Shown here in pieces: positions 1,237-32,589 of a DNA stretch of 64,000 nt (positions within the stretch are counted from its first letter, which is position 1; every line of letters starts with the position of its first letter). Made by a program: the position numbers and the translations under genes. A model generated the notes under the pieces. It had not been told where the DNA came from. It was given only the letters and a program-made list of their open reading frames with translations, and did no database searches. Origin of the DNA: an uncultured Nitrospinota bacterium (lineage in GTDB: Bacteria; Tectomicrobia; Entotheonellia; J063; CAVPRW01); the NCBI GenBank assembly GCA_963707985.1, contig CAVPRW010000010.1:240303-304302 (forward strand). Direction: 5' to 3'.

Positions 1237-1320
1237 TTTCTTGCTCCGTCACTGAAGTTTTGATCAGGTCTCGAGTTCTATATGCTTATGCTCCAGGATG
1301 CTCCAAATCCTTTCATACAG

Positions 1321-1390
1321 CCTAACCCGTCGGTGAGCAGACCCGCAAAAAGCTGTGCTTTTTGCGGGTCTGCTCGACCGACGGGTTAGG
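1321..1390. terminator. Long near-perfect inverted repeat (33/34-nt arms, 3-nt loop) overlapping the stop codon of the DUF4263 gene, 85 bp upstream of the DUF4238 start
   Basis: cctaacccgtcggtgagcagacccgcaaaaagc-tgt-gctttttgcgggtctgctcgaccgacgggttagg read directly; one extra base in the right arm. Confidence 0.6.
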
Positions 1391-2141: not shown

Positions 2142-2166
2142 CGCGAAGAACTCCCTTCTTAGGAGC

Positions 2167-3480
2167 CGTCTGGAAATAAATTTTACATTAATGCATTAGC
2201 TCCCCGTCTTGCTCTGGGACGCTTATGAGGAAGGATCGTGTAGTTCCACTCGCCGTGGAAGTCGGATCGCTCAAGGCGCATGGCCTCCATCTCGACAGCG
2301 CTCACCTTGAGGCCAATCGGATATTGCCCAGCATCGAGGGCCGCCTGGATGCGCAGCCCCGTGGAAGAGCGAGGACTGCCAATGAGGCTGACGATCACCT
2401 CGCGGCTCAGCAGGGGCTGTCCACGCCAGTTCGCGGTGATGTAGCAAAACATGCGATGTTCGATCTTGTTCCATGTGCTCGTGCCAGGCGGCCGATGGCT
2501 GACCGCCATACGCAGCCCCGTCTCATCGGCGAGCCGCTGCAGCTCGGCCTTCCATAGCCGCGCCCGGGCACTGTTGCTGCCGCCACCATCTGCCGTGATG
2601 AGCAGCTCCTTGGCCCGCGGATACATGGCCGAACCCATCTGGCGCCACCACGCCCGGATCGTCGCTACTGCGAACGCAGCGGTGTCATGGGCCACGCCCA
2701 CGCTGACCCACCCGAGGTTGGCGCCGACGTCGTAGACGCCGTCGGGGATGGCCTTGCCTCGCTCCCCATCGACGAAGTCATACACGCGGACCTCAGGAGG
2801 ATGCCCCGTGGGGTGCCACTCACGGCCAGCATTCTTGAAGTCTCCGAGGAGTTCCTTCTTCTTGGCATCGACAGAAATGACCGGCTGGCCGCGGCGCTGA
2901 AAGTCCTGCACCCGGACGTTGAGATGCTCGAATTGCGCGTGGCGGTCCGGGTGATGGCCCCCCTCGCGGGTCTTGCGCGCTCCCTGTAAGCTGTAGTCCG
3001 CCGCATGGAGCAACTCGCTCACGAGCTGGGGGCTGACCTGGTGCCCCTGCGTTTTGAGCTCGGCCGCGAGCTTGCGGACACTCTTGCACGTCCAGCGCAG
3101 CGGTGATGGCGGGTCGCCTCGGGTCGTGGGCTCGACCAAGGCTTCCAACGCGTGAAGCAGCGTTGGGTCGTGCCTGGTGCGCTTCTTGCGCCCGCCCCCA
3201 GGCCGTCGGACCCGCTCGTCACGCCCCCGAGGCGTCGCCACGGTGCCGGTGTGGATCTCCTCAATGCCAGCGTAGATCGTCGGGCGTGACAGTCCTGTCG
3301 CTCGCGCGGCGGCACTGATACCACCGCGCCCCAGCGCGAGCGCTTCGGTCGCGGCCCAGAGCCGTCGCGCGTGCTCGTTTAGCACCGGGCTCAGCGTCTT
3401 GAACTTCTCCGTCAATGCAGTGTATTCTCGCATGTGGCTTAGTCTAACCCTGGAAAACCATTTGTAAAGGTTATTTCCAG
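2167..3480 (-). mobile_element. ISAzo13-family insertion sequence with about 25-bp imperfect terminal inverted repeats (TCTGGAAATAAnnTTTACA...)
   Basis: Left end gtctggaaataaattttacattaatg (2167-2192) vs reverse complement of right end tgtctggaaataacctttacaaatgg (3455-3480); single transposase ORF inside. Confidence 0.7.
2183..3433 (-). CDS. ISAzo13 family DDE transposase
   Basis: 416 aa; HDTAAFAV...WW...YP.A.ELLITADGGGSN..R.RLWK.ELQ.LA..TG block typical of ISAzo13-like (Rhodopirellula-type DDE) transposases. Confidence 0.85.
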   Translation of the reverse strand: MREYTALTEKFKTLSPVLNEHARRLWAATEALALGRGGISAAARATGLSRPTIYAGIEEIHTGTVATPRGRDERVRRPGGGRKKRTRHDPTLLHALEALVEPTTRGDPPSPLRWTCKSVRKLAAELKTQGHQVSPQLVSELLHAADYSLQGARKTREGGHHPDRHAQFEHLNVRVQDFQRRGQPVISVDAKKKELLGDFKNAGREWHPTGHPPEVRVYDFVDGERGKAIPDGVYDVGANLGWVSVGVAHDTAAFAVATIRAWWRQMGSAMYPRAKELLITADGGGSNSARARLWKAELQRLADETGLRMAVSHRPPGTSTWNKIEHRMFCYITANWRGQPLLSREVIVSLIGSPRSSTGLRIQAALDAGQYPIGLKVSAVEMEAMRLERSDFHGEWNYTILPHKRPRARRGANALM

Positions 3481-13506: not shown

Positions 13507-14592
13507 CTATCGGCCTGCCCGAAATCGGTACCGCTCCTGCACATAACTTCCCAGTTCCTGACACCAGAGCGGCACATGGGACAGGGCCAACCCCAGTTGA
13601 AGGGGGAGTCTTGGAAATTCGTTCAAAGGTGCGCCCAGGGCCACTGTTGCGGCGATGGGCATATCCCAGCGTTCACGGGCTTCCCCAAGCATCTGCAGCG
13701 GATGACGCCAATGGCAGGCCATATAGTGTACGACTCTCCTGCGCTCACCGGCTCCGAGGCAGCGATCCCATTGCCGTAAGACGGCTGGGATGAGCCAGCG
13801 GGGTAAGTGGTTGGCGTGATCGGCAACCGGGGTGTTTTCGATATCGGCAGCCAGGAGCTGGTGCGCTAGCCCTAGTGTGCAGGCCACCCAACCGGCGTGG
13901 CGGCTATTCCCTCCCAGGCAACGGTCCCAATCGAAGTCCGGCGGCCGAGATTCCAGCGCCGCGGCGATATCACAGAGCCACAGCGGGCGCCAGGCATTGT
14001 GGCGCAGGAAATGGCGGATTAAGACGACCAGATGGTCCTCGGCGGCCAGGATACGGATATCGACGTCGTTGAGACGAGCGGTTTGTGAGCGTGCGTAGAG
14101 AACGTCGAGACTTTGGCCACACATCCACCTTAGGCCGCGATGCAGGTCCACGGGGCATTCGCCACCATTGCCCTCGTTGAGCACGGTCAGGGCCGCACCG
14201 TGTTGTTCGGGGCGCACGACGATATCAAGATCGCCAAACGGACGCAGGCCGGACTCCGGATAAAGCCGGGCCACGGCCCAGCCTTTGATCAAGAGCGGTT
14301 CCACCCCGGCGGCGCGCAGCGCGCCGAAAAGCTGTTGCAGCACCTGCTCACGTACGGTTGTGCGAATGGTGTGCAAACGATAGGCTTGCTGCAGGGTGCG
14401 GGCCGCGGCGGATGTCCGCAGACGGCTGTGTCGAACACGGTGCCAACCGAGCGCCCCTCCTCCCGATCGCAGCAGCAGCGGGGTAACCTGTTGTAACTCG
14501 CCCTCGGATGTAGCCAGGGGAGGAGGGTTATGACGCCAAATTCCCCTCAGCAGTGAGGCCAGGACACTACCGGGGGACGTTACTATACTCAT
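13507..14592 (-). CDS. Nucleotidyltransferase family protein (NTP_transf_5-like, the family that accompanies HPr-kinase homologues in lasso-peptide clusters)
   Basis: FGDLDIVVRP nucleotidyltransferase motif; 361 aa; overlaps upstream kinase gene by 26 nt. Confidence 0.6.
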   Translation of the reverse strand: MSIVTSPGSVLASLLRGIWRHNPPPLATSEGELQQVTPLLLRSGGGALGWHRVRHSRLRTSAAARTLQQAYRLHTIRTTVREQVLQQLFGALRAAGVEPLLIKGWAVARLYPESGLRPFGDLDIVVRPEQHGAALTVLNEGNGGECPVDLHRGLRWMCGQSLDVLYARSQTARLNDVDIRILAAEDHLVVLIRHFLRHNAWRPLWLCDIAAALESRPPDFDWDRCLGGNSRHAGWVACTLGLAHQLLAADIENTPVADHANHLPRWLIPAVLRQWDRCLGAGERRRVVHYMACHWRHPLQMLGEARERWDMPIAATVALGAPLNEFPRLPLQLGLALSHVPLWCQELGSYVQERYRFRAGR

Positions 14593-15418
14593 AGGACTTC
14601 TCCAGATATTTCAGGAGCCGTGGGGCGACTGCGCTGGCCTCGCCACGTCCACCCTTGAGGATGATGGCGTTGGCGGCGACCCGCTGCAGGATAACCAGAA
14701 CATCGGCGGGTTGGCGGCGCGCCGACACCGTATTCGCCAACAAGGCTAACACCCCGTGCCCAGGGGAGAGACGTCGCGGTCGCCAGCTGGCCCCAGCCTT
14801 GTAATGGCTAACCACTACAAGACCGATGGGCAGGGGCGTGGAGCCCGTACTGCCACTCAGCGTCTCTGCGGGGTGCCGAATCGCCCTCCCTCCGGGATCC
14901 GCACGCAGGGACAACGGCTTGAGATATGGATGTACTCGTCCCTGCTCATCCAACACGGCATATTCATCCGAATAATAGGTCGCACCGGCAGTTACCAAGG
15001 CTGCGACCAGTGTACTTTTGCCGCTGTGGCTCCGCCCTGGGATGAGGACGGCCTTCCCTCGCCAGCCGACCACACCGGCGTGTACGAACCGCCGACGGGG
15101 TGCGGCTTCAGCCACATGCAGATGGACATGCGCTTCAAGGGCGTCGAAAACCTCCTCAAGATCGAGTGATCGCGCCACACGCAGCGCATTCGCATACAGT
15201 AAGTGGAAACGACGCACTGCCGCCCTTGCTCCAGCTCCCCCTACGACCAACGAATAGAGGATATCCACCTGGGGGGAGGAGGCGGGTTTCCATGCCGGCG
15301 GCAGATAGATTCCAACTCGTTTCAGCACATCGGTCTCGCTCACTCGGATCCCGACGCGCACCCCATAGGCGGTAAAGGCCCGTCCAGCCGCCCAGCCCAG
15401 GCGGTCGATTTTCTCCAT
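14567..15418 (-). CDS. HPr kinase/phosphorylase-like P-loop kinase (HprK-related kinase)
   Basis: GRSHSGKSTL Walker A in the position and context of the HprK C-terminal domain (GxSGxGKS). Confidence 0.65.
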   Translation of the reverse strand: MEKIDRLGWAAGRAFTAYGVRVGIRVSETDVLKRVGIYLPPAWKPASSPQVDILYSLVVGGAGARAAVRRFHLLYANALRVARSLDLEEVFDALEAHVHLHVAEAAPRRRFVHAGVVGWRGKAVLIPGRSHSGKSTLVAALVTAGATYYSDEYAVLDEQGRVHPYLKPLSLRADPGGRAIRHPAETLSGSTGSTPLPIGLVVVSHYKAGASWRPRRLSPGHGVLALLANTVSARRQPADVLVILQRVAANAIILKGGRGEASAVAPRLLKYLEKSYEYSNVPR

Positions 15419-16254: not shown

Positions 16255-16834
16255 GGCGGGGGTCGCGCTCTGACCGGTATTCGGCGAGACAGAATATTTC
16301 AATCTTGTGTGGACTGATTGAGATGTTGTGCGACGTTGTGTCATAACTGAGTTCCCTCTCGACCCTGGATTGCCAGATATCAGACGACGGCACGTCTGCT
16401 GCTCAGGTGCGAGCCAATCCGGAGGGCGTTGCACTCATCCTCTCGAGGAGGTAACCCATCGGATTGGCGGCCTTCGGTGGGGAGAAGGCCAGCCTCCGCG
16501 ACGTTAGTGGGATTATAACATGCTCCCCAAGCCGGGTAACATGATAGTAACCGCTTAAGCCTAGGCTCGTTGACACCGGGCGACAGCACGCTAGAATATC
16601 ATGCTGACATGGCAACGGGATCGATTCAGGCAACGAATGGCACAGTCCCGGCGGATAGCCTCCATAGAATCCGAGGGTTTATGGCTTGAAGTACGGCCGG
16701 ATCACCTCACATGCCACGCGTTCCATCCTGGATGGCTACAAGTTATCACGCAAGTATTTCCCCGGTTAGATCTACATTGTGCCCCGTCGGGTCGGGTGCC
16801 TCATGTCCCGATGCTCGGGTGCAGAGGGGGTGAT

Positions 16835-17200
16835 GTGCGCTTTCGCGTCCATCTTCGTGCCCCACCGCCGATTGTGATTCCAATAAACTATGCGCATCAG
16901 CTCGCCTCCGTCGTCTACCACCTTCTCGGCCGCTCTTCTTCAGCATATAGGGCGTTTCTGCATAGTCAGGGCTATGGCACAGGCGATCGTCGCTTCAAAC
17001 TGTTCACCTTCTCCCCTCTCTTTGGTCAGCCACGCCAGGTGGTGGCCGGGCATTTACGCTTCGAGACTACCGCAGTGACATGGTCCATCACCTCCCCAGT
17101 GGAAGCCTTCATCCGACATGTGGTCCAGGGCATTCTGAGCCTCGATCAGATCGAGATAGCCGGCGTTACTTTCATAGAAAAGAGGAGACTTATGGCATGC
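16835..17200 (+). pseudogene. cas6: Cas6 endoribonuclease N-terminal fragment (C-terminal half incl. Gly-rich loop missing; reading frame runs into the HEPN gene)
   Basis: VRFRVHLR...PINYAHQLASVVYHLLG...AFLHSQGYG...FKLFTFSPLFGQPR...HLRF aligns to Pyrococcus-type Cas6 (RFLIRL..PYNHQYYLQGLIY...KLHD..KPFVFSLLFGNPR); GTG start with GAGGGGG SD. Confidence 0.55.
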
Positions 17201-17655
17201 CTGGCCGCTACGAAGATTGGTTACGGCAGGCGCGACGAGATATCAGCCACGCGCAAAACGCCTTGGAGGATGGCGATTACGATTGGGCCTGCTTTGCAGC
17301 CCAGCAAGCGGCCGAGAAAGCCGTTAAAGCCCTCTTCCGATTCCTCGCTGCAGACGCTTGGGGTCATTCCGTGAGCTTGTTACTCGGCAGGCTCCCCGAG
17401 ACATACAGACCTCTCGAAGCCATGATCGATGGCGCCAAGGAACTAGATAAGCATTACATCCCTTCGCGTTATCCCTATGGCTTTGACGAGGGTGCCCCAC
17501 TTGATTACTACACCAAAGATGAAGCCACACGGAGCATAGGCCATGCGCGAGTCATCATCACCTTCTGTGAAGGTCACATTTACCAACCGAGAACAAATCC
17601 TCACAGCCCTGAAGAATCTGATCCAGGAGTGGGCCCAACAACACCCGGAGCTTGA
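17197..17655 (+). CDS. HEPN-domain protein (HepT-like toxin of HEPN/MNT pair)
   Basis: DYDWACFAAQQAAEKAVKA...LDKHYIPSRYP typical HEPN; AGAGGAG SD 9 nt upstream of ATG. Confidence 0.7.
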   Translation: MPGRYEDWLRQARRDISHAQNALEDGDYDWACFAAQQAAEKAVKALFRFLAADAWGHSVSLLLGRLPETYRPLEAMIDGAKELDKHYIPSRYPYGFDEGAPLDYYTKDEATRSIGHARVIITFCEGHIYQPRTNPHSPEESDPGVGPTTPGA

Positions 17656-17920
17656 GCAGGTCATCCTGTTTGGCTCATTTGCGCGTGGCGATTATTTCCC
17701 CGGAAGTGATGTGGACGTGCTTCTCATCCTTGAGAACTCAGACCAACCGCTTCTATACCGTAGCCGAAAATTTCTTCCAACCCATTTTCCGGTTGACATC
17801 GATGTATTTCCTTACACTAGAGATGAAATCGAGCGCTTCATGAATGATCCTCAGAGCCTCGTGGTGCAGGCGCTGTCCGAGGGCAAACAGATGTACCCTT
17901 TAACTGGTTGCGAGTTTTAG
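17543..17920 (+). CDS. Minimal nucleotidyltransferase (MntA-like antitoxin)
   Basis: ILFGSFARGD....SDVDVLL = GS-x9-DxD Pol-beta superfamily motif; overlaps HEPN gene. Confidence 0.65.
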   Translation: MRESSSPSVKVTFTNREQILTALKNLIQEWAQQHPELEQVILFGSFARGDYFPGSDVDVLLILENSDQPLLYRSRKFLPTHFPVDIDVFPYTRDEIERFMNDPQSLVVQALSEGKQMYPLTGCEF

Positions 17921-18112
17921 ACACCGCAGAACGCTCGCAGGTAGATCAACACATACGCTAACAACTTCATCCCCGTATAGTCAAAATATTCGAACTCGCC
18001 TTCCCCCTGGAGGTTAGGCCTTTACCACCGTCTGTGCTTCAGCTTGTCTTCTGCTCCACTTTCACCCATACTCAGCATCAATTATGGATAGCAAAAGCTG
18101 AGAGGTGCGGCG

Positions 18113-19066
18113 ATGGACTGGAAACACCTGCTCGCATACATCACGGCGACTGTCGATCAGGAACTGCTGGTGTGCAACGAATATCTGGTCACGGAGAATC
18201 GCATCCTCCGCACCCAAATCAAGGGGCGCCTCCGGTTGAGTGACGGCGAACGTCAGACCTTGGCGGAGATTGGCCAGAAGCTAGGGAAGCAAGCCTTGGA
18301 GGAAGTGGCCACGATCGTCAAACCCGAGACCGTCCTTGGCTGGCACCGGAAACTGGTCGCCCGGAAGTTTGACGGTTCCCAACAGCGCAAGGCTCCCGGC
18401 CGTCCCACGATCGACCAGGAGGTGGAGGCCCTGGTGGCGCGTATGGCCAAGGAGAACCGCTCCTGGGGTTATGACCGGATCGTCGGCGCACTGGCCAACC
18501 TGGGCTATACGATCAGTGATCAAACCGTGGGCAATATCCTCAAGCGCCACGGTATCCCACCGGCACCAGAGCGTAAAACCACGACAACCTGGAAGGAGTT
18601 TATCCTCACGCACATGGATGTGCTCGTCGCCACTGACTTTTTCACCGCTGAGGTCTGGACAACGGCAGGGTTAGTGACATACTACGTGCTCTTTTTCATC
18701 CACCTCGCCAGTCGGCAAGTCCATCTGGCCGGCGTGACGCCCCATCCTGATGAGCGATGGATGGTGCAGAGCGGCCGTAACGTCACCATGACTGACTGGG
18801 GCTTCCTGTCTCCCGGGCAGTACCTCATCCATGACCGGGATGGGAAATATTGCCCCGTGTTTCAGCACATTATTGATGAGGCTGGCGTGAAGCGCGTTCC
18901 ATTACCGCCGCGGTCGCCGAATCTGAATGCCTACGCGGAGCGGTGGGTGCGCTCAGTGAAGGAGGAGTGTCTGTCGCGACTGATCCTGTTTGGGGAAGCG
19001 TCGCTCTGGTATGCGCTTCAAGAGTATGTGGAGCACTACCGTCACGAGCGGAATCATCAGGGTTAG
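18113..19066 (+). CDS. DDE (rve integrase-core) transposase of the IS3/IS481 superfamily, possibly 3'-truncated
   Basis: Leucine-zipper N-terminus, HTH ([19 protein letters not shown]), LIHDRDGKY and ...[10 protein letters not shown] ending abruptly within the conserved Y-x-ERPHQ motif. Confidence 0.7.
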
Positions 19067-19541
19067 GACAATGTGCTGCTCTTTCCTATCTCAAGAGGAG
19101 ACGGAAGGCGTACAGGCCCGGTTCACTGTCGAGAACGGCTCGGCGGACTCCTGAAATACTACGAGTGTGAGGCCGCATGAGTTTTTTGACCAAACGACCA
19201 GCAAAGTCTTCCAATCCATGCGTCTGTCCCCCTCCGTTTGCTCCGCCCTCCATGGGCGTCGAGTATACGTAATGGGGTGGACAGGAGGCGAGCCGAAGCG
19301 TGAGCCATGGCAGGGCCGTAAACGCTGCCGTCAAGCCGGTTTCGAGTTTTTTGACCATACGCGATTATTCCGATGAGACGAAGCGATTTGCGATCGCGCC
19401 GAGGTCACGATTCTTTGTCTCGAGCTCCCTCCGTCGCTCAGAATACTCTGACGTTAGGCGTTCTGACTCGTCGAACGTTCCGTCTTCGTTGTATCGGACA
19501 GCTGATAGGAATCGAGTATCTCCCTCGAATGCCTGCGCGGC

Positions 19542-20288
19542 CTACTCTGTGAGGGTTTGGAAGGTTCGCTCAGCCGTTTCCAGAGGTGCCTTGAGTTGGG
19601 TCCGTACCTCACGATGAACCGCCCCGAGGCCTTCGCTGTACTGCCTGAGGAGCGGCATAAGGGCAATGAGGCCATTCCCATTGGCACGCTGTTTGAGTTC
19701 CTCGAGTATTGGAGGTTTGAACTTCTTATCCTGAGCAAGTTCCCTTACACCAATGGCAGGGACGACGCTGAATCTCGAGCGGGCTGGCTGGAATCGCTCC
19801 TCATGGACGATAGGGAACGAAATAGCATTAACCGGAAGTCCTCGATGCTGAGCATGATTTCGCAACGCCTCCATTGCCCTGTACCCAAAGCGGTCATCGT
19901 ACTGCGCATTCATAACCTTTCTTATGCGCGCCACCACACGGCCACCATCTTGAAGGGCCTCTGAAATGTCGTGCTTTACTTGGTCCACGTATAGCCGCGC
20001 CGTCGCAAGGTAGTTGGTAAGTCTGCGATTCGTGCTACGCCGTGCGTGATTTAGGAGCTCGTCAATCCGACCAGGAAAGAGTGAGTACTCAAGCGCCATG
20101 TCGAGGAGATGACGTTCGAGATCCGCGTGATTCTCCAGTGCGATGTCGAACTTTTCCTCGACACCCAACCCAACGCTGAGCGTGACCCGCGCCCGTTGTG
20201 CGGCAGCGAACTCCTCCGCCGAGATTGGCACGTCTTTGTCGAAACCGATGTATGCGCAGGTAACGCCGTACCTTACTGCATCAGTCAT
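19542..20288 (-). CDS. Hypothetical protein with HEPN-like R-N-x3-H motif (ALRNHAQH)
   Basis: 249 aa, start MTDAV with GGAG SD; no known domain recognised beyond the motif. Confidence 0.4.
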   Translation of the reverse strand: MTDAVRYGVTCAYIGFDKDVPISAEEFAAAQRARVTLSVGLGVEEKFDIALENHADLERHLLDMALEYSLFPGRIDELLNHARRSTNRRLTNYLATARLYVDQVKHDISEALQDGGRVVARIRKVMNAQYDDRFGYRAMEALRNHAQHRGLPVNAISFPIVHEERFQPARSRFSVVPAIGVRELAQDKKFKPPILEELKQRANGNGLIALMPLLRQYSEGLGAVHREVRTQLKAPLETAERTFQTLTE

Positions 20289-20429
20289 GTGTCGCTCCTG
20301 AGCGCTCCCGTCGCCCAACTATTGAGTATCTGGCCATGTTTGCGTCAACGCCTCCTTGAACTAGTGCGAAGTCAAGCCGGCCCCACCCGTGCGTGATCAG
20401 TACAGCACATAATGGACCAAATGGCTGAG

Positions 20430-20910
20430 TCACTTCCGCGCCAGTGGCGCTCTGATGGGATCGCCGAACACGTCGATGATGAAGCGGTCCACGCCTTTGA
20501 AAAAGGCTTCCGCTAATCCTGCGATTGAGACGAACACCTGATCTGGAGCCGCTTGTGGGTTGTAGATGACTTCTGGGTCCGATTGATCGACATACCCGAT
20601 CTCCCGGCATTTGCCTTCGCGGCTCAGCCGTGACATGACGCTATAGTTGTGGAGCATGCCGCACCGTGCCCCATAGAGATCAAGCCCTGTGAGCTGTTCC
20701 TGACAGGGGAAATGCAGATATTGCTCAGCCCAGCGGATGAAGGCAGCACGGGTGACATCCTGCTGGCCCTCCGGCAGACTGAGGAAGGCCATGGCATCGA
20801 TCCACGCGTAAATCAGGATGACGGCAGAGCGATAACATTGCTGCTCAAGTAGCACCTCTATGCCCTGCTTGATCCCGACATGAATGACGTTTGAGATCGA
20901 TGCCTGCGGA
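20430..20910 (-). CDS. Hypothetical protein (160 aa)
   Basis: Start MSEVPQ with AGGAG SD; contains ARCGMLHN (R-x4-H); otherwise unassignable. Confidence 0.35.
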
Positions 20911-21087
20911 ACCTCGCTCATGAGCCATACACTCCTGGGAATGCTCCTCGCTCCACTGTGGTCGGCTGCACTCCACACCGAAGTCCGGTTGTGGTAACGC
21001 GGTTTGGAAGGGCTGTGCTGGACCACGTTCGCGCCCATTCGTGACGCCTGCCGCGAGACGGGGCGCTGACCCACCTCTGTGTAACGT

Positions 21088-21516
21088 TTATGGGGCCTCG
21101 CTGGCTGCCCGGCGAGGATTAGGGACCGCGTCGATGATCTGGTCAAACGTGCAGGCCCGCCCTTGAAACCCGTATATTTCGTTCACAAAGTGGTGGTAGG
21201 CAGGGTCCCTGGCCTCCAGACTCTTGAAGGCTTCGGCGACGGTGTGGAGCACGAGATAAGCGTCCTGCCGCCAAATCCGTAAGGGAAGCAGATTGAGCTT
21301 GAGGTGGGTGGACTGTCTGGTCTGAGGATCGAGCACCTGGTGAAATTTCAGATCGCCGTAGCCTGCCTGGAGAGCCGGTGGGGACACAAACTGCAGCGTC
21401 TCGAGCGTCTCCTGAACAATCTGGCCTTCCCAGAGATGGCTATGAGCAAGGACATCACGGATGACAAAGACCTCTCTGATCGCCTGGGTGAGTGGAGACT
21501 CCGGGGTCACCTCCAA
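21088..21516 (-). CDS. Hypothetical protein with HEPN-like R-D-x-x-A-H motif (IRDVLAHSH); TTG start
   Basis: 142 aa; motif resembles the Abi_2/HEPN R-[ND]-x-x-A-H signature. Confidence 0.35.
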   Translation of the reverse strand: MEVTPESPLTQAIREVFVIRDVLAHSHLWEGQIVQETLETLQFVSPPALQAGYGDLKFHQVLDPQTRQSTHLKLNLLPLRIWRQDAYLVLHTVAEAFKSLEARDPAYHHFVNEIYGFQGRACTFDQIIDAVPNPRRAASEAP

Positions 21517-21869
21517 GAAATACCCCAGCGCAGACTTCCGGCCCTGTCGCGTTCATGGTAACGGACCCAGGCAATCCCTGACTCGAACACCAGCGCGGCC
21601 AGGACGATGATCGCAGCCGAATACCCGTTCTCGTTCCGGCTGGTTTGTACGTCATTTGGAGCTTTGGCGGGCTCAGCCATCAAGGTTTCGACAACCCTCA
21701 CCAAGGGTTGGATCAAGGCAGGGCCAATCGGTGAAATATAGCCGAACGGCGTCTCGACCATACGATTCGTCTCCTCCTCCAGGCTTTGCTGATCAATCAC
21801 CGGCCACGGGCGGCGCAGGGGTAGGGGCACGGGAGCCCCGCTCGACGGCCTCATGGCAGGGTCGGACAC
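21507..21869 (-). CDS. Hypothetical protein with one hydrophobic (TM-like) segment; may be the frameshifted N-terminal part of the downstream gene
   Basis: 120 aa; NENGYSAAIIVLAALVFESGIAWV segment; 10-nt overlap with next ORF in a different frame. Confidence 0.3.
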   Translation of the reverse strand: MSDPAMRPSSGAPVPLPLRRPWPVIDQQSLEEETNRMVETPFGYISPIGPALIQPLVRVVETLMAEPAKAPNDVQTSRNENGYSAAIIVLAALVFESGIAWVRYHERDRAGSLRWGISWR

Positions 21870-22045
21870 CCCGCTCCTCCGCCTATAGGCGCACCTCCAC
21901 CCCAGCGCGCACCGGCATCTCGAAACACCAGCGGAGATGTCAGGGTCGCCAGCGCGTTCGGCGTTCTCGCCGGGCCGGTTCCTGATTGACGTAGATGCGA
22001 AGCTTTTCCGTGGGCGGCACGGATCAGTCGATCAGCTGAGTTGCC

Positions 22046-23261
22046 TCACTCGCACAAACACCACACGTGGAAGATATCAATAGGCGTCGCTTGGCCCTTG
22101 CGATCGGGCCACTGAAAGGTCCGCTCATGACGGCTCAGAAAAACAGCTTCGGCGGCCGGTGTTGAGCAGGCCCCTTTCATGGTTGTCCGTGCCGGTAGCT
22201 GCTGGGTCTGGAGAGTGGACATGCGCGGAGCTTCGGACATCGCAGGCAGCAAAGACTGTTCGATGGTGCGGCCGTTGCGGGCGTAAGCGAGCATCATGGC
22301 CTCCTGCATGGCCCACGCGTAGTCGCCGCGTACGAAGCGGATGAGGCCATCGTCACAGTATTTGCTGCCTGCAGGGTGCGCAGCGTCCACTGGCTTGGCT
22401 TCGATGAACAGGCCCTCGTGTTCGGAGAGCACCGAGCGTGGCTCGGTCTCGTCGTTTCGGAGTTTGAAAAAGAGGTCGGGGGCTTTGTTGAGGCTCTTGC
22501 CGTCGTAGTTGGCCCACTGGGCTTGACGGCTGACGAATTCGAAGTTGCGCTTGTCGAAACCCGGCACCTCGCCGCTCTGGCGGAGGTTGTTCTCAATCGT
22601 GCTGCGGAGTGCGGCGGTGACTCGGTCTTCGTGAGCGGCGGCGAGGTTGAATTGCTGTTCGCGCAGCAGCTCGAATGCGCGGAGCACCACGCGGCGGATG
22701 AGGAGCAGGACCGGAAGGCCAAGGCGCGGATGAGGGAGGTGATAACGCTCCGGCTGGAACGCCGAGCGTGAAGAAGCCCGCTGTGTCCGACGTGCTCATG
22801 CGTGCTCCGGCGAGACCACACTCGCCCAGTCGTTCGCGGATGATGTGTTGTGCGCAGAGCCGAGCACGCGTGACAGTCCACCACCGGCGCTGATTGAGCA
22901 GGCCGAGCAGCAGGCCGCGCTTGCGCGGCGCGTGCACAATGATGCGGCTGCAGCCGCGCTGGTTGGCCGCTTCCATCGCTTTTCGCATCAGGCTGGGATT
23001 GACCGACACCGAGTCCGCCTCGCGCGAGACGGCCAGGAAGAACCACGGTTCCCGCCATGTGTCGGGCTGAAACTCCGCCTCGCGCACCGCGACGTGTTCG
23101 CCGCAGACATCGAAATACGGTTCCAAGTGCTTCGCGCAGCGTTTGCACGAAATCGGCGCGTGTGTCGCGAGTCGTGCGGTCGAGCGCGGCCTTGCCGGCT
23201 TTGCGATACGAGGCGGCGGCGAAGAGCGTGTCCTCGGCGACCTGCACCGCATCCGCATCAA
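22046..23261 (-). pseudogene. PD-(D/E)xK nuclease-like gene, split across two frames (frameshift near 22.6-22.7 kb)
   Basis: ...KAPDLFFKLRNDETEPRSVLSEHEGLFIEAKP = PD...(D/E)xK core in frame ending 22690; protein-like N-terminal part in frame ending 23261. Confidence 0.4.
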
Positions 23262-25990
23262 GCCCGTAGAGTCGGAAGATGAACTCGTTTATTTCTCGCC
23301 ACGGCTTGCTCGCGTCGTGCTGAAGTCGCTGCGCAAGGCTGCGGATGGTGGTCTTGGTCTTGGTGGGAATCTTGGCAATGTGCGGGGAACGGCAGGGCGT
23401 CGAAGTCCTGCTTTGTGAACATCATGCGGTCGGCTCCCTGCGACACACTGACCATCAGGGCAAAGTATCGGAAGAGAGTGCTGTGCGCCAAAAGGAAGAT
23501 GAGCGAGGCAAGCGTCTGCTCTTCGGGATGCCCGGCGCACGAGTAGCCATAGTAGCTTTGCGAAAATGCCACAGCTTGAGTCGGATAGATAGGCCTTTGG
23601 GGAGCATGGGTCGTCGCCTGGGGCCTGTGGAATGATGACGAGCGGCGGTTGATAGAGTTCCTCGCGACGCGGCATGTGAGCGCTACTTTGGCCTCTGGCG
23701 TTCTTGCCGAATAACTCCCCGTATGTCGTCGTGGCCGCGGTGAATCCGAACAAGACGGCTCACGTCGGTGCCTCGAAAGACTGGTAGACTCGCCAAGGAA
23801 ATCTACGAACTTCTGAGCCAGATTGGGAGAGCGATTGTACCCTTGCCCAGTCTTGGCACCGTCCGCGTCCCACTCAGCCCAGCGGGCTCCAAGGGTCTTG
23901 TGGTCGATGTTCGACAGTGCCTCCATCACCTCCACATCCAGCCACGTCCCGAGCGATAGTGTCTTGAGCAGCCACGGCTGTTTCTCGACACGAGCGACGC
24001 TGATAGGATGTCGCGGCTTCGTAATCAATGCGGAAGCGTCCGTCGTCCGTTGAGTTCGGGTTCGTGAATGGGCGCAGCGTAGTGGAAGCGATGTTCTGGC
24101 GCGGGCTTTGCGTTGCGTGCAAAGAACACGCAGAAGGGCATCTTCACGTCCTTCCAGACCGACGACCACCGCAGATCCGCTCCGTTGATAAGTCCCGTCA
24201 CTTCGACGCTACGCAGCACGGCACGCCATGCCTCGAAGCCTTTACCAGAGGTGCGCCCGAAAAGCCGCGCGGGCATGGCAAGAGCGATGACGCCGCCGTC
24301 TTTCGCCCACTCCATCGCTCGCCAGAGGAATGGCAGGTCGGGATTCTTGTCGGGATTCTGGAAGCGCTTTGCCAAGTCATCCAAGCCGCGCGCAGTCAGC
24401 ACTCGGCGGCCAATCGCGGTGAACGCTTTGTTCAGTGCATCGGTGGCGGACTTGCTCGCCTTTGTATCCGCAGCATTGCCGTCTTTATCCTTGTCGTCGC
24501 GCAGTCGCGTCCACGGCGGATTGCCGATGACGATGTCGAACGTCTTGTCGAAGTCCGGCGAGACTTCTGGGCCGAGACTGCCCAGCGGGAATGCCTGCTT
24601 CCCTTGAGACTCTGCGCCACCAAAACGGTAGAGCACTTCGCCGCGGAGATTGCGCGGGAACTTGAGTGCCTGCGGCGGACGTGGGCTGGCATTGAGTTCG
24701 ATGGCAGTGATGTAGAGCGCGAGCGCCGCGAGTCGCAGAGCGGACTCGCTGATGTCGAAGCCACGCACCTGCTTGTAGAGAATGTTCTGTATGACCGCCG
24801 TCTTGGGTCGTTCGTCGTCTTGCAGCCAACGCTCGCGGACGAGGCGACGGAACGCGAGCACGAGGAAAATCCCCGCGCCGCACGAGCTATCGAGCACCTG
24901 TGCGCCAGCCTTGTCTTTCGTGGCGGCGAAGGCCTCCTCGACCATCAGTCCGGCGATGGTGCGCGGCGTGTAGTGGACACTGGTGTCCCGAGCCGTGCGC
25001 GGGTCGGCACGATGACTGAAGCTCTCATACACCTGACTGAGCACGCCAACTGGGATGTGCGCGAAATCGAGGTCGCCCCAATCGAGTTCGGTTTGGACAG
25101 TATCTCCAACGGCACTCCAGCCATGGAGAATCGCCTGGAGATGGGTGAAGATTTTCTTTCCCGACCAGATGCTCGGTGCGCTTGAAGAAACGAAGATACG
25201 CTGCCTCACGCGCATCGCGGCTATCGGCAGGAATGGATTCGTCGATGAGCGGGAGGAAGTCACCGTTGAAGGTCACGTCGAGCCACGCGGAGGTCTGCGC
25301 AGCTTTCTCCGCTGTGGAGAAGGCGTCTTTGAGTTCGTTCGCAGCCGAGCAGATGTCGTCGCGCTCGTGTTCCAGCACGATGCGCCGGTCTATGAGGAAG
25401 CGGAAGAATAGCGCGCGGCCCGCCATCGACAGGACTTCGAGCGCGTCCAACCGTCCCTTGCCGTCTTTGGGGACGAACTCGTTCGTCGTTTGTGTGAGTA
25501 GGTCGAAGATTTTGTGGAAGACGTAGTCCGTGCCGCGAAGCCGATGATTTTCCTCAAAGGTGCCATGCACAAGGCTCTGGAAGAACAACGGCGCCGTCGG
25601 GCTACGTTCATCGATCGTCTTCACAGGCCGCTGTATCGGCAGCCTCGTGGAACCCGATGGGGAAGATTTCCAACGAACCGGGCGCACGACACCCAGCCAC
25701 GCTGGGTCGCTGCGGTTTGCGAGCCGACGCCGCACAACGGCGAGCGAGGTTGCGTCGCTCTTCACATCGCCACTCGCGTCCACGAGATAGAGTAGCGCGG
25801 TCCCTTGATGCTCGGCGACTGCCGTGAGAGCGGGCGCGTGGTTGCTCTGCTTGGGCAACAGGTCGAGGTAATCGAGCTGCACAGGGGCAGAGAGCTTTTC
25901 GTCGAGCCGTATGACGCTCGTGCAGCCATAGGCAAGCAGCCGGTCAGCGAATGGACGATCCTCAACCATGTTGGGGTCTGTCATATTCAT
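23258..25990 (-). pseudogene. MmeI-like Type IIG restriction-modification enzyme (N-terminal nuclease-like domain + gamma-class N6-adenine MTase with NPPW) disrupted by at least three frameshifts and a stop
   Basis: Frames: 25990-25025 (LLYLVDASGDVK nuclease-like), 25263-24025 (SLDWGDLDFAHIPVGVLSQVYESF...HYTP...DSSCGAGIFL...IVIGNPPW), 24169-23258 and 23753-23289 carry further protein-like segments. Confidence 0.5.
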
Positions 25991-26332
25991 TTGCTGCCAG
26001 TCAAAGGTGCCTCATTCAGCCGAGTGGTTTCGGCAGTTTGATCGGCGACATACCTCTCCGCTGCGTCACGCACGACCCACGCCAATGAGACCTTTTTCTG
26101 TTTGGCGATCTCTTCCAGAATCCTATACAGCTCCGGCGGAAAGCTGACGGACGCACGTAGCGAGGCCGCGCTCGGTGTCTTGCTGTCGTTTTCCTGTTTT
26201 CTTCTCGCCTTCATGTGCAGTGCCCCCGGCTTTCAACTGTGCACCACCTTACACCATATTGGTGTACTTGCAAACTATATATTTTGGCGCACTCGTAGTG
26301 TCACGCGCTCCGTGGGCTCCGGCGTCCACTTT

Positions 26333-27162
26333 GGTTCTGTCGCAATTTTTATTTAAGGCGATTTGAGGTATGATCTCCCGCTGTCATCGAGGGTGCCATG
26401 AGAGGGGGAGAGGCAATGCCGGTGAGCTTCAAAGGGGCCCATTTCCCGCAGGATATCATTCTGATGGGTGTACGGTGGTATGTGGCGTACCCGTTGAGCG
26501 ATCGGCATGTGGAGGAACTCATGGAAGAGCGCGGGGTGCTGCTCGACCATGCAACCATCCAGCGCTGGGTCGTGAAGTACAGTGCTCAGTTGGAAGAGGC
26601 ATTCCACCGCCGCAAGCGCCCGGTCGGGCGCCGCTGGCGCATGGACGAGACCTACATTCGGGTCAAAGGCGAGTGGCGGTATTTGTATCGAGCGGTGGAT
26701 AAGTCCGGGCAAACCATTGACTTTCTCCTCACGGAGCACCGAGATACCGAGGCCGCGCTACGCTTTCTGATGCAAGCGATCCACCGTCACGGGGTCCCCG
26801 AGACAATCACCATTGATGGGAGCGGGGCGAATGAAGCGGCCATCAAGCGCTACAATGAGGAGCACGGCACCCACATCATCATCCGGCAGGTGAAATATTT
26901 GAATAATATCGTGGAACAGGACCATCGAGCGGTCAAACGGGTGACGCGTCCCATGCTGGGGTTCAAAGCGTTCGAGGCCGCACAGGCGACGTTGTCCGGG
27001 ATCGAGCTCATGCCCATGCTCAAGAAACGGCAGCTGATGGTTGAGGCAGGAGACGAGGGCCTCACGGCGGCCGAACAGTTCTACTCCCTCGCAGCATAAT
27101 CCCCACACGGACGGGGGCCACTGCCCCTGCACAGCCCCCTGAGCAAAATTTGCGACAGAGCC
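26333..27162 (+). mobile_element. IS6-family insertion sequence with 17-bp terminal inverted repeats GG(T/C)TCTGTCGCAA(A)TTTT; no flanking direct repeat
   Basis: ggttctgtcgcaatttt (26333-26349) vs reverse complement of aaaatttgcgacagagcc (27145-27162). Confidence 0.8.
26416..27099 (+). CDS. IS6 family (IS26-like) transposase
   Basis: MPVSFKGAHFPQDIIL..VRWY...MDETYIRVKGEWRYLYRAVD..G.TIDF closely parallels Tnp26. Confidence 0.85.
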   Translation: MPVSFKGAHFPQDIILMGVRWYVAYPLSDRHVEELMEERGVLLDHATIQRWVVKYSAQLEEAFHRRKRPVGRRWRMDETYIRVKGEWRYLYRAVDKSGQTIDFLLTEHRDTEAALRFLMQAIHRHGVPETITIDGSGANEAAIKRYNEEHGTHIIIRQVKYLNNIVEQDHRAVKRVTRPMLGFKAFEAAQATLSGIELMPMLKKRQLMVEAGDEGLTAAEQFYSLAA

Positions 27163-27247
27163 CTCCGATTTGTCCGCCCAGATGGACATGTTATAATAAA
27201 AGTTTCGACGTCGTTGACGGGCATATTATCTCTCTGACAGGTGACCT

Positions 27248-29227
27248 ATGAGTACGTACGATATCGGCGGCAAGCCTCCATATACCGCGTGGGAGAACCA
27301 GCAACACCGACCTGTGTCGTTTGACGTTTCCCTATTAACGCAGGACGACCTCTATCTCTTCAATGAGGGCACCCATTATCGGTTATACAACAAGCTCGGA
27401 GCCCATCCGCTCACCGCCAACGGTGCCGACGGCACCTATTTCGCCGTGTGGGCCCCAAACGCTACCCAGGTTTCTGTGATGGGGGAGTTCAATCGCTGGG
27501 ACAAAGCCAGCCATACCTTGCGTTCGCGAGGTGAATCGGGGATTTGGGAGGGTTTCATTCCAGGCGTTGGTCGGGGGACCATCTACAAGTATCACCTGAT
27601 CTCCCGGTACCAGGGGTATCAAGTCGACAAGAGCGACCCCGTGGCGTTTTACTACGAGGTGCCACCCAGAACCGCGTCCATAGTGTGGGACCTGAGTTAC
27701 ACGTGGGGGGATCAGCCGTGGATGGCCACGCGCCATGCCAGAAACGCACTCGCCGCTCCGATGGCCATCTATGAGATGCACCTGGGATCATGGATGCGCG
27801 TGCCCGAAGAGGGAAATCGCTCTTTGACCTACCGTGAGCTAGCGCCCAAACTGGCCGAACACGTCAAGCGCCTGGGCTTTACCCATGTCGAATTTCTGCC
27901 GGTGATGGAACATCCCTTCTATGGTTCCTGGGGCTATCAAACCACCGGCTACTATGCTCCTACCAGCCGCTATGGCACCCCTCAAGACTTGATGTATCTC
28001 ATAGATTATCTGCATCAGCATGAGATTGGGGTGATCCTGGATTGGGTTCCCTCACATTTTCCGACCGACGAGCACGGACTGGGATTTTTCGACGGCACGC
28101 ATCTCTACGAGCATGCCGATATGCGGCAAGGGCTACACCCCGATTGGAATAGCTTCATTTTCAACTACGGACGTAATGAGGTGCAAAGCTTTTTACTGAG
28201 CAGTGGGCTGTTCTGGCTCGAAAAGTATCATGTCGATGGCTTGCGGGTCGATGCCGTTGCCTCCATGCTGTATCTCGACTATTCGCGCCAAGCCGGGGAG
28301 TGGATCCCCAATCCACACGGCGGCCGTGAGAATCTTGGCGCCATCGCCTTTCTGCGTCGCTTCAACGAGTTTGTCTACAAGGATTTCCCCGCCGTGCAGA
28401 CATTTGCCGAGGAATCAACAGCCTGGCCAATGGTGTCAAGACCAACCTACGTTGGCGGCCTGGGATTCGGCGTTAAGTGGGATATGGGGTGGATGCATGA
28501 CACTCTCTCTTATATGACGAAGGACCCTATCTTTCGTCCCTATCATCACAATCTCCTCACCTTCCGCATGCTCTATGCGTTCACAGAGAACTTTATCCTG
28601 CCGTTGTCTCACGATGAAGTTGTGCACGGGAAAGGCTCCCTGCTGGGCAAGATGCCTGGCGATGACTGGCAAAAGTTCGCCAATCTGCGGCTGATGTATG
28701 GCTACATGTACACCCAACCGGGGAAAAAGTTGCTCTTTATGGGGAGCGAGTTCGGCCAGCGGCAGGAATGGAATCACGACGTCAGCCTCGATTGGCACCT
28801 CGGTCAGTACGCCCCACACGCAGGTCTGCAGCGCTGGGTGGAAGACTTGAATCGGCTCTATCGCAGCGAGCCTGCGCTCTACGAGCTCGATAACCACCCG
28901 TCCGGCTTCGAATGGATCGATTGCAATGATGCGCCCGCAAGCGTGGTCAGTTGCCTACGCAAGGGACACTTGACGGATGACCTGATACTCGTCGTCTGTA
29001 ATTTCACCCCCGTCCCCCGCCTCAATTATCGTGTCGGCGCGCCACGTGGCGGGTTCTGGCACGAGGTGCGCAATAGTGATGCGCACGACTACGGCGGCTC
29101 TGGCTATGGCAATATGGGGGGCGTTGAGGCCGCACCGGTCCCCTGCCATGGCCGACCCTATTCGTTGAATCTCACCCTTCCCCCTCTGTCGGTGGTGTTC
29201 TTCAAGCATGAGGAGTCCGGCGCATGA
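27248..29227 (+). CDS. glgB: 1,4-alpha-glucan branching enzyme (GH13), short form
   Basis: [21 protein letters not shown]..., GH13 catalytic blocks (GFDGFRVDAV equivalents), 659 aa. Confidence 0.9.
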
Positions 29228-31105
29228 GAGAGGCCGCTCAGGACGCCCCGGCGACGCGGTATCTGCCATCGACCATCGGCGCCTGGACGGTCGGGGAGGG
29301 GCGCTGCCGATTTCGCGTATGGGCGCCGACAGCACAGTCGGTTGAGGTCCATCTGTTACCTCCAGCCGAGCGCTTCGTCCCCATGGCCGGGCGAAGGCGC
29401 GGCTATTATGAGGTGGTCCTCGACGGTGTTGAGCCTGGAACGTTGTATCGGTATCGCCTCGACGGCACGCTGGAGCGCCCCGATCCGGCGTCGCGCTGCC
29501 AGCCGGAAGATGTCCATGGTCCCTCGCAGGTGGTCGACTCGGATTTCGACTGGGATGACGACGCTTGGTGCGGGATCCCGCTGCGAGACTACATTGTCTA
29601 TGAGCTGCATGTCGGGACCTTTACCCCGGAAGGGACGTTCGAGGCCATCATTCCCTACCTCCCTGAGCTCAGAGCGCTGGGGATCACCGCGGTCGAGCTC
29701 ATGCCCATCGCCCAGTTCCCTGGGCAGCGCAACTGGGGGTATGATGGTGTCTATCCGTTCGCGGTGCAGCACTCGTATGGTGGTCCCGATGGCTTGAAAC
29801 GGCTGGTGCAAGCCTGCCATCAGCACAGTTTAGCAGTGGTCCTCGACGTGGTCTATAACCATCTCGGACCAGACGGGAACTATCTGGGGGACTACGGCCC
29901 CTACTTTACCGAGCGCTACAAAACCCCATGGGGAGGCGCCCTCAACCTCGATGGGCCGTACAGCGATGAAGTGCGTCGTTTTTTCATCGACAATGCCCTC
30001 TTCTGGGTCACCGAGTTCCGCATCGATGCCCTGCGGGTCGACGCCGTCCATGCCATCCTGGACCACTCGGCGCAGCCGTTTCTCCAGGAGCTCGGCTTGG
30101 CGTTGCAGGCACGCGCTGAACACATGAATCGGCGCATTTATGCCATCGCCGAGAGTGCCCTGAACGATACCCGCATCATTCGCCCACGGGAGCTTGGTGG
30201 CTATGGGCTCGACGCCCAATGGAATGATGATTTTCACCACGCCCTGCGCGTATTGCTTACTGGAGATCAGGGTGGCTATTATCAGGATTTCGGGGAGCTC
30301 GGACATCTGGCCAAGGCGTTTCGCGAAGGGTTCGTGTATGCCGGCGATTACTCGACGTATCGGCGGCGGCGGCATGGTAATTCCTCCCAGCACATGCCAG
30401 CGCAGCAGTTCGTGGTCTTCACGCAGAATCACGATCAAGTGGGTAATCGCATGCTCGGTGAGCGCCTGAGTCAGTTGGTCTCTCTGGAAGCGCTCAAGCT
30501 GGCTGCCAGCGCCGTACTGTTGTCCCCTTTCATCCCGCTGCTGTTCATGGGAGAGGAATACGGCGAGGTCGCGCCGTTTCAGTATTTCATCAGCCATCTC
30601 GATGCGCAACTTGTCGACGCGGTGCGTCGGGGCCGGCGCGAGGAGTTCGCCAGCCTTCGCCTGGCACGCTGAACCACCCGATCCACAGGATATCGCAACG
30701 TTCCACCGCTCCAAGCTCAATCATCGCCTGCGCTCTGAGGGGCATCATCGGGCCCTGTTCGAGTTCTATCAGGAGCTGATCCGCCTTCGAAAAGAGCTTC
30801 CTGCTCTGGCACAGTTGAGCAAAGAGCACATGCACGTGGTCGGCTTCGAACGCGAAAAAACCCTCTGCATCCAACGTCGGTGCGATGTGCAGCAGGTATG
30901 GCTGATCCTCCACTTCGGAGGCTCCCCCATGTCGCTTCAACTGCTCTGGGATGCGGGGTTGTGGTACAAGCAGCTTGATTCTGCGGAGGAGCGCTGGGGT
31001 GGGTCGGGGAGCCCTGTCGATCCAGCGCTCGCGTCCGAGGGCGAGGTCACCCTGCATTTAGCTCCCGAAAGCTGCCTGGTGTTTGCGCAGATGACCGAGA
31101 GTTGA
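29224..31105 (+). CDS. treZ: Malto-oligosyltrehalose trehalohydrolase TreZ, interrupted by a +1-bp frameshift near 30651 (EEFAS|[12 protein letters not shown])
   Basis: [11 protein letters not shown]...GTFTPEGTF...[17 protein letters not shown]; C-terminal domain ([17 protein letters not shown]) continues in the +1 frame; ATGA-coupled to glgB. Confidence 0.8.
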
Positions 31106-31207
31106 TTGCGGACCAGTGCTAGTGTATGTTTGAAACCTGCAGCAAAGCCCGACACGGATATCTTTCCACCGCGAACATGGTGATGGCAGAAGAGGAGTGC
31201 AAGCCTC

Positions 31208-31594
31208 ATGGCGGGAAGCAGTGACACCTATCACGAATCGCTCGATAAACTTTCTTCCACAACCCAAGACATGCACCGGGCGCTCGTCTCTCTGCAGGAA
31301 GAATTGGAGGCCGTCGACTGGTATCAACAGCGCGCGGATGCCACAGAAGACGCCGAGCTCAAAGCCATCCTGGTGCATAACATGCGTGAGGAGATCGAAC
31401 ACGCCTCGATGGTCCTGGAGTGGTTGCGACGCAACCATCCGGACTTTTCAACACATCTACGCACCTATCTCTTTCAGGAAAAACCGATTCTTGACATTGA
31501 AGCGGTAGACCGTGCAGCCAATGGCAATGGTGCAGCGAATCCGGGACGACCACAGCGCATGGGACTGACAATCGGGACGATGAAAGGGGAGTAA
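31208..31594 (+). CDS. Encapsulated ferritin-like protein (EncFtn/Flp) with C-terminal encapsulin targeting peptide (GLTIGTMKGE)
   Basis: HESLDKLS...ALVSLQEELEAVDWYQQR...EIEHASMVLEWLRRNHPDF matches EncFtn; GAGGAG SD. Confidence 0.75.
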   Translation: MAGSSDTYHESLDKLSSTTQDMHRALVSLQEELEAVDWYQQRADATEDAELKAILVHNMREEIEHASMVLEWLRRNHPDFSTHLRTYLFQEKPILDIEAVDRAANGNGAANPGRPQRMGLTIGTMKGE

Positions 31595-31598
31595 ATGT

Positions 31599-32402: not shown

Positions 32403-32589
32403 ATCACACCTCCCCCTGCACGACTGGAGATGCAGACAGAATAGTCCGGCACAACGCCGCCATGTTCCCCGTCACGTCAGACCCCTTGGCGAAGGGGTCG
32501 GGTGCCGACGATGACGTCACATCATCTCTCCCGCTCTCTGGTCCCCTCCCAGTGGGAGACCGAGAAAGACGCTGCTCAAGGGGAAATCC

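Follow-up and report, generated by a model that had tools for sequence, protein, structure and literature searches.

A 5' cas6 remnant of a type I-B CRISPR-Cas locus beside an intact HEPN-MNT cassette in an uncultured Nitrospinota bacterium

We analyzed a 64,000-nucleotide stretch of contig CAVPRW010000010.1 from an uncultured Nitrospinota bacterium (hereafter termed the window), in which an initial annotation made from the letters alone had described an orphan Cas6 N-terminal fragment running into a HEPN gene and a minimal nucleotidyltransferase (MNT) gene. We find that positions 16835-17173 very probably represent a non-functional 5' remnant of cas6, which derives from a decayed type I-B locus and was truncated by a 500-bp deletion beside an intact HEPN-MNT cassette. 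The locus is a case of ordinary gene decay and not a new system, being composed of a pseudogene remnant and a common mobile cassette. Its elements are as follows.

16835..17173, plus strand: cas6 remnant, codons 1-113 of 264, encoding the N-terminal RAMP/ferredoxin-like domain (PF21350; 93% identity to the intact Cas6 protein P0005)
17167..17173, no strand: deletion junction, with a single retained copy, TACTTTC, in the window; the counterparts in intact relatives are a left-hand TACCTTT and a right-hand TACCCTT
17174..17374, plus strand: out-of-frame tail of the cas6 remnant, 66 codons and a stop codon, overlapping the 5' part of the HEPN gene in another frame
17180..17189, plus strand: Shine-Dalgarno-like AAGAGGAGAC, with its end 7 nt upstream of the HEPN start codon, located inside the shared cassette block and kept in every cassette copy
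17197..17655, plus strand: intact HEPN gene, 152 amino acids, COG2250/TM0613/TT1696 class (PF05168, E = 5e-35), in a frame different from that of cas6
17543..17920, plus strand: MNT gene, 125 amino acids (PF01909, E = 3e-12), with a GS...DVDV motif and a 113-nt overlap with the HEPN gene

A mechanically called open reading frame (16601-17374, plus strand) matches the Pfam family PF21350 (Cas6 N-terminal) over its residues 93-192, with E = 7.4e-12 and 45.8 bits against a cut-off of 27. In tblastn searches, residues 1-113 of P0005, an intact 264-residue metagenomic Cas6, correspond to window positions 16835-17173 with 93% sequence identity. Both results uphold the N-terminal Cas6 homology that the initial annotation had put forward. 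Its claim that the C-terminal half with the Gly-rich loop is absent held as well: P0005 has no further tblastn match in the whole 64 kb, residues 114-264 find none anywhere in the window, PF01881 (the C-terminal RAMP domain) is unmatched in the window reading frames, and both the Gly-rich loop (GxGxxxxxGxG; GFGDRNSQGFG in relatives) and the second RAMP domain are missing. Displacement of the C-terminal half to another place in the window by an insertion can thus be ruled out. The NCBIfam Cas6 equivalog model TIGR01877 scores the window frame at 29.3 bits, below its cut-off of 58.65, and intact P0005 at 115.2 bits. The remnant starts with GTG at position 16835, where relatives have ATG, and the tail beyond the residues GVTF diverges from every aligned Cas6 and has no Cas6 homology. 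Cas6 enzymes consist of two RAMP domains, with the Gly-rich loop originating from the C-terminal one and the active site located between helix alpha1 and this loop, and a His/Tyr/Lys catalytic triad has been described for PfuCas6 and TtCas6 (PMC3727216). Tyr28, His43 and Lys55 are invariant in our alignment of the Cas6 clade and are retained in the window. By analogy, these residues may represent a PfuCas6-type triad, and such an active site would also require the missing Gly-rich loop. As the second RAMP domain and the loop are gone, and as the window contains neither an array nor effector genes, the stub is expected to be inactive and unable to process CRISPR RNA.

We compared the window to related contigs from ENA, JGI and Logan metagenome assemblies. 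A search with the ~120-residue fragment retrieved four short relatives only, and intact 264-residue Cas6 proteins were found via a full-length reconstruction from the related locus L002 (96% identity for P0005, 89% for P0006). A scan of genome contigs yielded Cas6 matches of at most 44% identity, from Bipolaricaulia, Poribacteria and Fraserbacteria. By blastn, the loci L005 and L002 align to window positions 16547-17172 and then to 17172/17178-17900. L002 carries ~498 additional bases between these blocks, and the C-terminal domain of Cas6 with its GFGDRNSQGFG loop is encoded there. A three-way alignment indicates that exactly 500 bp (columns 68-567, corresponding to L005 10333-10832) are missing from the window, and the blastn breakpoints agree. 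The deletion has removed codons 114-264 and most of a ~67-bp spacer, after which the cas6 frame continues to a stop codon at 17374. We interpret the window lesion as a microhomology-flanked deletion that arose between two imperfect direct repeats of 7 bp. With 500 bp missing, cas6 is beyond repair by any indel correction; a frameshift or indel whose reversal would restore full-length Cas6 is thus ruled out, and the truncation is a true one.

More distantly related contigs reveal the system from which cas6 derives. In L006-L009, L011 and the P0007 contig, the same cusF-flanked site holds cas6-cas8b1-cas7-cas5b-cas3-cas4-cas1b-cas2, and Cas6 from these distant relatives is 66-82% identical to the full-length sequence reconstructed from L002. 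In these intact loci cas3 comprises HD and helicase parts, and two small genes without known function are located between cas3 and cas4. The array in L006 contains 26 repeats of GTTTTAATCGCACCAATGTGGAATTGAAAC. Because Cas8b1/Cst1, Cas7/Cst2, Cas5b, Cas3 (Cas3' and Cas3'') and Cas1b of the intact related loci score above their NCBIfam cut-offs, as does Cas4, we assign the ancestral system to type I-B and not to type III. A search for an intact cas6 or type III locus at the syntenic site of related genomes, as proposed in the initial annotation, indeed uncovered intact cas6 genes, and the complete CRISPR-Cas loci among these are of type I-B. The functional link between HEPN ribonucleases and type III systems drawn there finds no support in this comparison: the HEPN protein is of the TM0613/TT1696 type, has PF05168 as its only domain, lacks CARF and is not a Csm6/Csx1 protein, and a cas gene of any kind is located within 10 kb in only 6 of the 80 metagenomic loci that encode HEPN relatives. 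With no cas10, csm or cmr genes, no CARF domain and intact relatives of type I-B, we rejected a type III link.

The window itself contains no CRISPR array, as tandem-repeat and direct-repeat scans found no periodic repeats in it, and the 30-nt repeat of the relatives finds no match in the window when up to 3 mismatches, or even up to 7, are allowed. Cas8b, Cas7, Cas5, Cas3, Cas4, Cas1 and Cas2 of a related locus gave a best E of 0.15 against the window in tblastn, in agreement with the earlier statement that CRISPR repeats and other cas genes are absent. The window is thus a relic of a type I-B locus and not a member of this group. Compared to type I-B (Tneap/Cst-type) Cas6 proteins (TIGR01877; PF21350 plus PF01881), the remnant has a clearly homologous N-terminal RAMP domain with the clade-invariant Tyr/His/Lys residues, and cas6 in the relatives heads a canonical I-B operon, with ATTGAAAC at the end of the associated repeat. 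Unlike these proteins, the window keeps 113 of 264 codons, with the C-terminal RAMP domain, the Gly-rich loop, the array and the effector genes all absent. Between positions 15.5 and 19.5 kb, we found no Rfam match to a structured RNA at E up to 0.1. The genes between cas3 and cas4 form a conserved, overlapping pair of 88 and 133 amino acids (L006 15592-16247, also in L007-L009 and the P0007 contig), which has no Pfam or NCBIfam match and could represent an uncharacterised accessory or toxin-antitoxin-like pair. As it has no family match and no similarity to the window, it is ruled out as the source of HEPN-MNT.

The HEPN-MNT cassette is a separate mobile unit, inserted between cas6 and cas8b. 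In L010, an intact cas6 is followed by HEPN, MNT and Cas8b1, the latter extending over at least 224 amino acids to the contig end (72% identical to Cas8b of L011; 56 bits with TIGR01908). L005 retains a 60-residue N-terminal stub of Cas8b followed by an insertion sequence (IS) element, and in L001 the start of cas8b is kept after a remnant of the MNT 3' end. Both L005 and L010 contain a full-length cas6, a ~40-bp spacer and then the same cassette as the window. The cassette measures ~738 bp, beginning ~28 nt upstream of the HEPN start codon and ending a few nt past the MNT stop codon. The same block is present with ~87% nucleotide identity in L092-L096, where its neighbours are a DUF29 gene and a toxin-antitoxin pair of the PIN/RHH type, and where cas genes are absent. 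An MNT gene is found directly downstream of HEPN in 79 of the 80 metagenomic loci mentioned above. HEPN-MNT pairs have been described as mobile two-gene modules, with recent insertions and deletions traceable between close relatives (Makarova et al. 2009, PMC2701414). Because L005 and L010 keep full-length cas6 before the same cassette, the cassette did not truncate cas6, and the truncation is a later, window-specific event. The initial annotation had envisaged a relic CRISPR-Cas locus overwritten by a toxin-antitoxin module; the relic stands, with a separate cassette embedded in it, and the idea of truncation by the cassette does not.

The two cassette genes had been correctly recognized from the letters: the PF05168 match and AAGAGGAGAC at 17180-17189 support a HEPN gene with its own Shine-Dalgarno sequence starting inside the cas6 frame, and the PF01909 match with the 113-nt overlap supports the MNT gene. 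The closest structures to HEPN are PDB entries 1o3u (TM0613, E = 2e-31) and 1ufb (TT1696, E = 8e-31); PADLOC returned no match for the HEPN protein. MNT contains the nucleotidyltransferase motif GSFARGDYFPGSDVDV (GSx(n)DxD type) and scores 31.5 bits with the MntA model NF047752, for which the cut-off is 60. In HEPN, the histidine of the Rx4-6H motif is absent: the window motif is RYPYGF, with Phe replacing His, close relatives have RYPYGF or RYPNGF, and RYPNxH occurs in just 29 of 79 HEPN family members. The window, L002, L005 and L010 all have intact copies of both genes. The ratio of nonsynonymous to synonymous substitution rates (dN/dS) is 0.06-0.13 for HEPN codons 1-115 and 0.07-0.23 for MNT, and HEPN-MNT appears to be under purifying selection. 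The last 6 residues of MNT (LTGCEF) and its stop codon are supplied by a downstream insertion; in relatives the protein ends in ...QMYP followed by a stop codon. The last ~26-37 residues of HEPN form an extension beyond the domain end that overlaps MNT and is probably a read-through extension.

Sequence variation across the cassette was examined by region. In more distant HEPN homologues, the match to the query stops at about residue 128. Within the overlap (window 17542-17655), the MNT frame is constrained (dN/dS 0.3-0.65). For the tail read as HEPN, dN/dS exceeds 1, or all changes are nonsynonymous, in those pairs that show more than 2 differences, and two pairs with two differences each have a ratio of 0.32. 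Over window positions 17657-17899, comparison to L005, L002 and L010 defines two MNT allele classes, with dS of ~0.14 within the groups {window, L010} and {L005, L002} and of 0.6-0.84 between them; HEPN and cas6 do not share this two-class split. The MNT allele split suggests that recombination may have occurred inside the cassette.

We compared the cassette to previously characterized modules. With the COG2250-type HEPN and COG1708-type MNT modules (PMC2701414) it shares the HEPN subfamily, small overlapping genes, a patchy mobile distribution and traceable insertion and deletion. Homologous HEPN and nucleotidyltransferase pairs are located on Thermus megaplasmids. It differs from these modules in its position within a cas operon and in its HEPN protein, which has a ~26-residue unconstrained C-terminal extension and Phe in place of the RxxxxH histidine. 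In type VII HepT/MntA systems, too, a HEPN protein is paired with a minimal nucleotidyltransferase encoded by an adjacent, co-oriented gene, and by analogy MNT would likely neutralise HEPN by nucleotidylation. In contrast to these systems, however, the HEPN protein belongs to PF05168/COG2250 and not to DUF86/HepT, the MntA score is below cut-off and the catalytic His is absent. The gene order in HepT/MntA is MntA followed by HepT, whereas here HEPN precedes MNT. CreTA, a toxin-antitoxin module within the cas operon, protects the Cascade genes of type I-B systems, and its antitoxin function requires Cascade. Our cassette likewise represents a toxin-antitoxin-like module inside a type I-B cas operon, but here the cas genes on both sides have been lost and the cassette has survived, with no safeguarding evident. 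The pair is probably a selfish or addictive unit of two genes, of the HEPN/MNT toxin-antitoxin type, with HEPN as the putative toxin.

Lesions at the related loci show an independent decay of cas6 in each lineage.

L002: CGA to TGA at codon 75 (R75*) and a 1-nt deletion (frameshift) in cas6
L003: cas6 frameshifts, and loss of HEPN codons 1-51
L001: cas6 indels, and a deletion that joins cas6 to the MNT 3' end
L004: homology stops after cas6 codon 90
L097-L099: just Cas6 residues 233-264 are left, and HEPN is frameshifted
Window: 500-bp deletion in cas6

From this series we propose the following history. The site by cusF originally held cas6-cas8b1-cas7-cas5b-cas3-cas4-cas1b-cas2 and a CRISPR array, an arrangement still seen in relatives. 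The ~738-bp HEPN-MNT cassette, composed of a ribosome-binding site and two overlapping genes, then entered the short cas6-cas8b spacer, and cas8b and everything downstream including the array were lost, with IS elements at the breakpoints; both of these stages are likewise seen in relatives. The last step is seen in the window, where a 500-bp deletion between TACCTTT and TACCCTT has left the cas6 remnant abutting the cassette. Upstream of the site, L005 is syntenic with the window over Uma2, DAO, TPR, a DsbH-like thioredoxin, NTP_transf_5 and the cusF region.

Several observations weigh against this reconstruction. The right breakpoint of the deletion and the left end of the block shared among cassettes lie within ~2 bp of each other. 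We treat this coincidence as chance microhomology, or else the cassette end may be prone to recombination. Alternatively, HEPN-MNT could have entered the interior of cas6 by an independent insertion in the window lineage and replaced the distal sequence, a scenario that would account for a breakpoint (~30 nt before the HEPN ATG) within ~2 bp of a block edge common to the unrelated context of L093-L095. The 9.27-kb insertion described below, moreover, replaces the sequence past MNT, leaving no cas8b or spacer by which this scenario could be tested. We nevertheless regard direct insertion as very unlikely, because all syntenic relatives with a cas6 3' end (L002, L005, L010 and L097-L099) show the same ~40-bp spacer and then the cassette, and the window and L010 cassettes share 94% identity. 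In addition, a single event suffices to explain the junction, given the 7-bp microhomology at either end of the deletion, and the Cas6 C-terminal half is found nowhere else in the window.

A second concern is that dN/dS of the cas6 stub is low (0.15-0.20 pairwise), with 10 synonymous versus 6 nonsynonymous changes on the window branch. This would be unexpected for a long-dead pseudogene; a recent deletion fits, and residual constraint fits as well, the simplest reading being that the deletion is recent relative to the window branch. Since neutral evolution would give synonymous and nonsynonymous changes in a proportion of ~1 to 2.9, the same counts could be taken to mean that the 113-residue domain is a functional mini-protein, acting as an RNA-binding or regulatory partner or as a leader peptide of HEPN-MNT in a three-gene module, and it does retain the invariant Tyr28, His43 and Lys55 residues, a promoter-like site and an open reading frame. 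We find this highly improbable, as the truncation is shared by none of ~15 related loci, where lesions differ by lineage, as GTG has replaced the ATG start codon, and as 66 unrelated out-of-frame residues have been appended. The Cas6 active site and RNA-binding surface, in addition, depend on both the C-terminal domain and its Gly-rich loop (PMC3727216), and cas genes accompany HEPN relatives within 10 kb in only those 6 of 80 loci. It also has to be considered that the sequence apparently comes from a metagenome-style assembly, such that the truncation could be an assembly or sequencing artefact and the real cas6 intact. This is barely credible, given a clean 500-bp junction with flanking microhomology, no repeats prone to assembly collapse, a gene that frameshift correction cannot restore, and assemblies from other samples that carry different, real lesions at the same locus. 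Finally, the toxin-antitoxin label is taken from family membership, for a HEPN protein without the Rx4-6H His and an MNT protein below the MntA cut-off, and we infer promoter use and HEPN toxicity from sequence features. We retain the reading of a cas6 remnant truncated by a deletion beside a previously inserted cassette.

Upstream of cas6 we located one candidate promoter for the cassette.

16570..16597, plus strand: sigma-70-like promoter match TTGACA-16-TAGAAT, 11 of 12 positions, ~240 bp upstream of the cas6 start (a consensus match only)

The same match is found at the homologous position in L005. Homology to L001, L002, L003 and L005 begins at window position 16547, and homology to L010 at 16546, with the promoter site included in all of them. 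Promoter-like matches in this region are no more numerous than in shuffled sequence. We detected no promoter-like site between cas6 and HEPN in L005, and no promoter of its own in the cassette. Positions 16570-16597 likely represent the former cas-operon promoter and are the sole candidate promoter found for HEPN-MNT. As the shared block starts ~28 nt before the ATG, as L005 has no such site between cas6 and HEPN, and as 16570-16597 is conserved, HEPN-MNT would depend on the cas promoter and is most likely transcribed from it through the cas6 stub. One could extend this argument and speculate that the stub has been kept on account of the cassette, in which no promoter is detectable, with deletions of the promoter and the cas6 5' part being tolerated only after breakage of HEPN; we consider this extension rather unlikely. 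In what is a small sample, 4 of 4 syntenic lineages with intact HEPN-MNT (the window, L002, L005 and L010) retain the promoter block, and the only lineage without it (L097-L099) has a frameshifted HEPN gene. The left edge of the cassette, within ~2 bp of which the window deletion ends, may be a recombination hot spot. If stub retention were indeed driven by the cassette, a toxin-antitoxin cassette would have parasitised a cas operon, outlived it, and would now shape which pseudogene fragments survive.

The sequence downstream of MNT is specific to the window and contains the following features.

17901..27166, no strand: window-specific 9.27-kb insertion, starting at the native MNT stop codon; the relatives L002, L097, L098 and L099 resume at 27167 (blastn)
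18113-19066, plus strand: IS481/IS3-like transposase open reading frame with HTH_32 and rve_3 domains, ending within the integrase core (...HERNHQG)
22294-25990, minus strand: overlapping open reading frames, one of which matches Eco57I, N6_Mtase and MmeI methyltransferase domains and PADLOC type IIG restriction-modification models
26333-27162: IS6-family element with inverted repeats GGTTCTGTCGCAA.../...TTGCGACAGAGCC at 26333-26365 and 27130-27162 and a DDE_Tnp_IS240 transposase at 26398-27099

The 9.27-kb insertion is absent from all syntenic relatives and ends 4 nt past the IS6-family element; it looks like an IS6-mediated insertion or rearrangement. The transposase at 18113-19066 is probably truncated or frameshifted, and no clear terminal inverted repeats were found for it. 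The reading frames at 22294-25990 probably represent a frameshifted, decaying type IIG restriction-modification gene. Those at 19542-21869 have no family match.

Elsewhere in the window, a defence and mobile-element patch on the minus strand (91-3433) encodes a DUF4238 protein (91-1236), a Shedu SduA_C-domain protein (1386-2141) and an ISAzo13-type DDE transposase (2183-3433). Positions 27248-41050 on the plus strand contain an alpha-glucan/trehalose cluster with GlgB, an isoamylase-like protein, a 1001-residue alpha-amylase-family protein, GlgE and a TreS-maltokinase fusion. An encapsulin (Linocin_M18) and EncFtn pair is located within this cluster at 31208-32402, and the gene for the 1001-residue protein has an 84-nt tandem duplication at 34648-34815. 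Upstream of cusF, an NTP_transf_5 nucleotidyltransferase and a P-loop protein are encoded on the minus strand (13507-15418). The same pair is found in L011 (519-6308), together with PqqD and a 1057-residue Peptidase_C25 protein, and this cluster may be a peptide-modification locus resembling those for ribosomally synthesized and post-translationally modified peptides (RiPP-like).

The significance of this locus alone is small, and the comparative series is tidy but unsurprising. For annotation pipelines it follows that the window open reading frame should be flagged as a cas6 fragment and not as evidence for a CRISPR-Cas system, and the case cautions that adjacency of HEPN and cas genes does not imply a functional link. 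Taken together, the contigs document a series that leads from an intact I-B locus via HEPN-MNT insertion between cas6 and cas8b to the loss of cas genes on both sides, with the cassette persisting. They thus provide a concrete, small example of a selfish two-gene module outliving its host defence system, an outcome opposite to that of CreTA-type modules, which safeguard cas genes.

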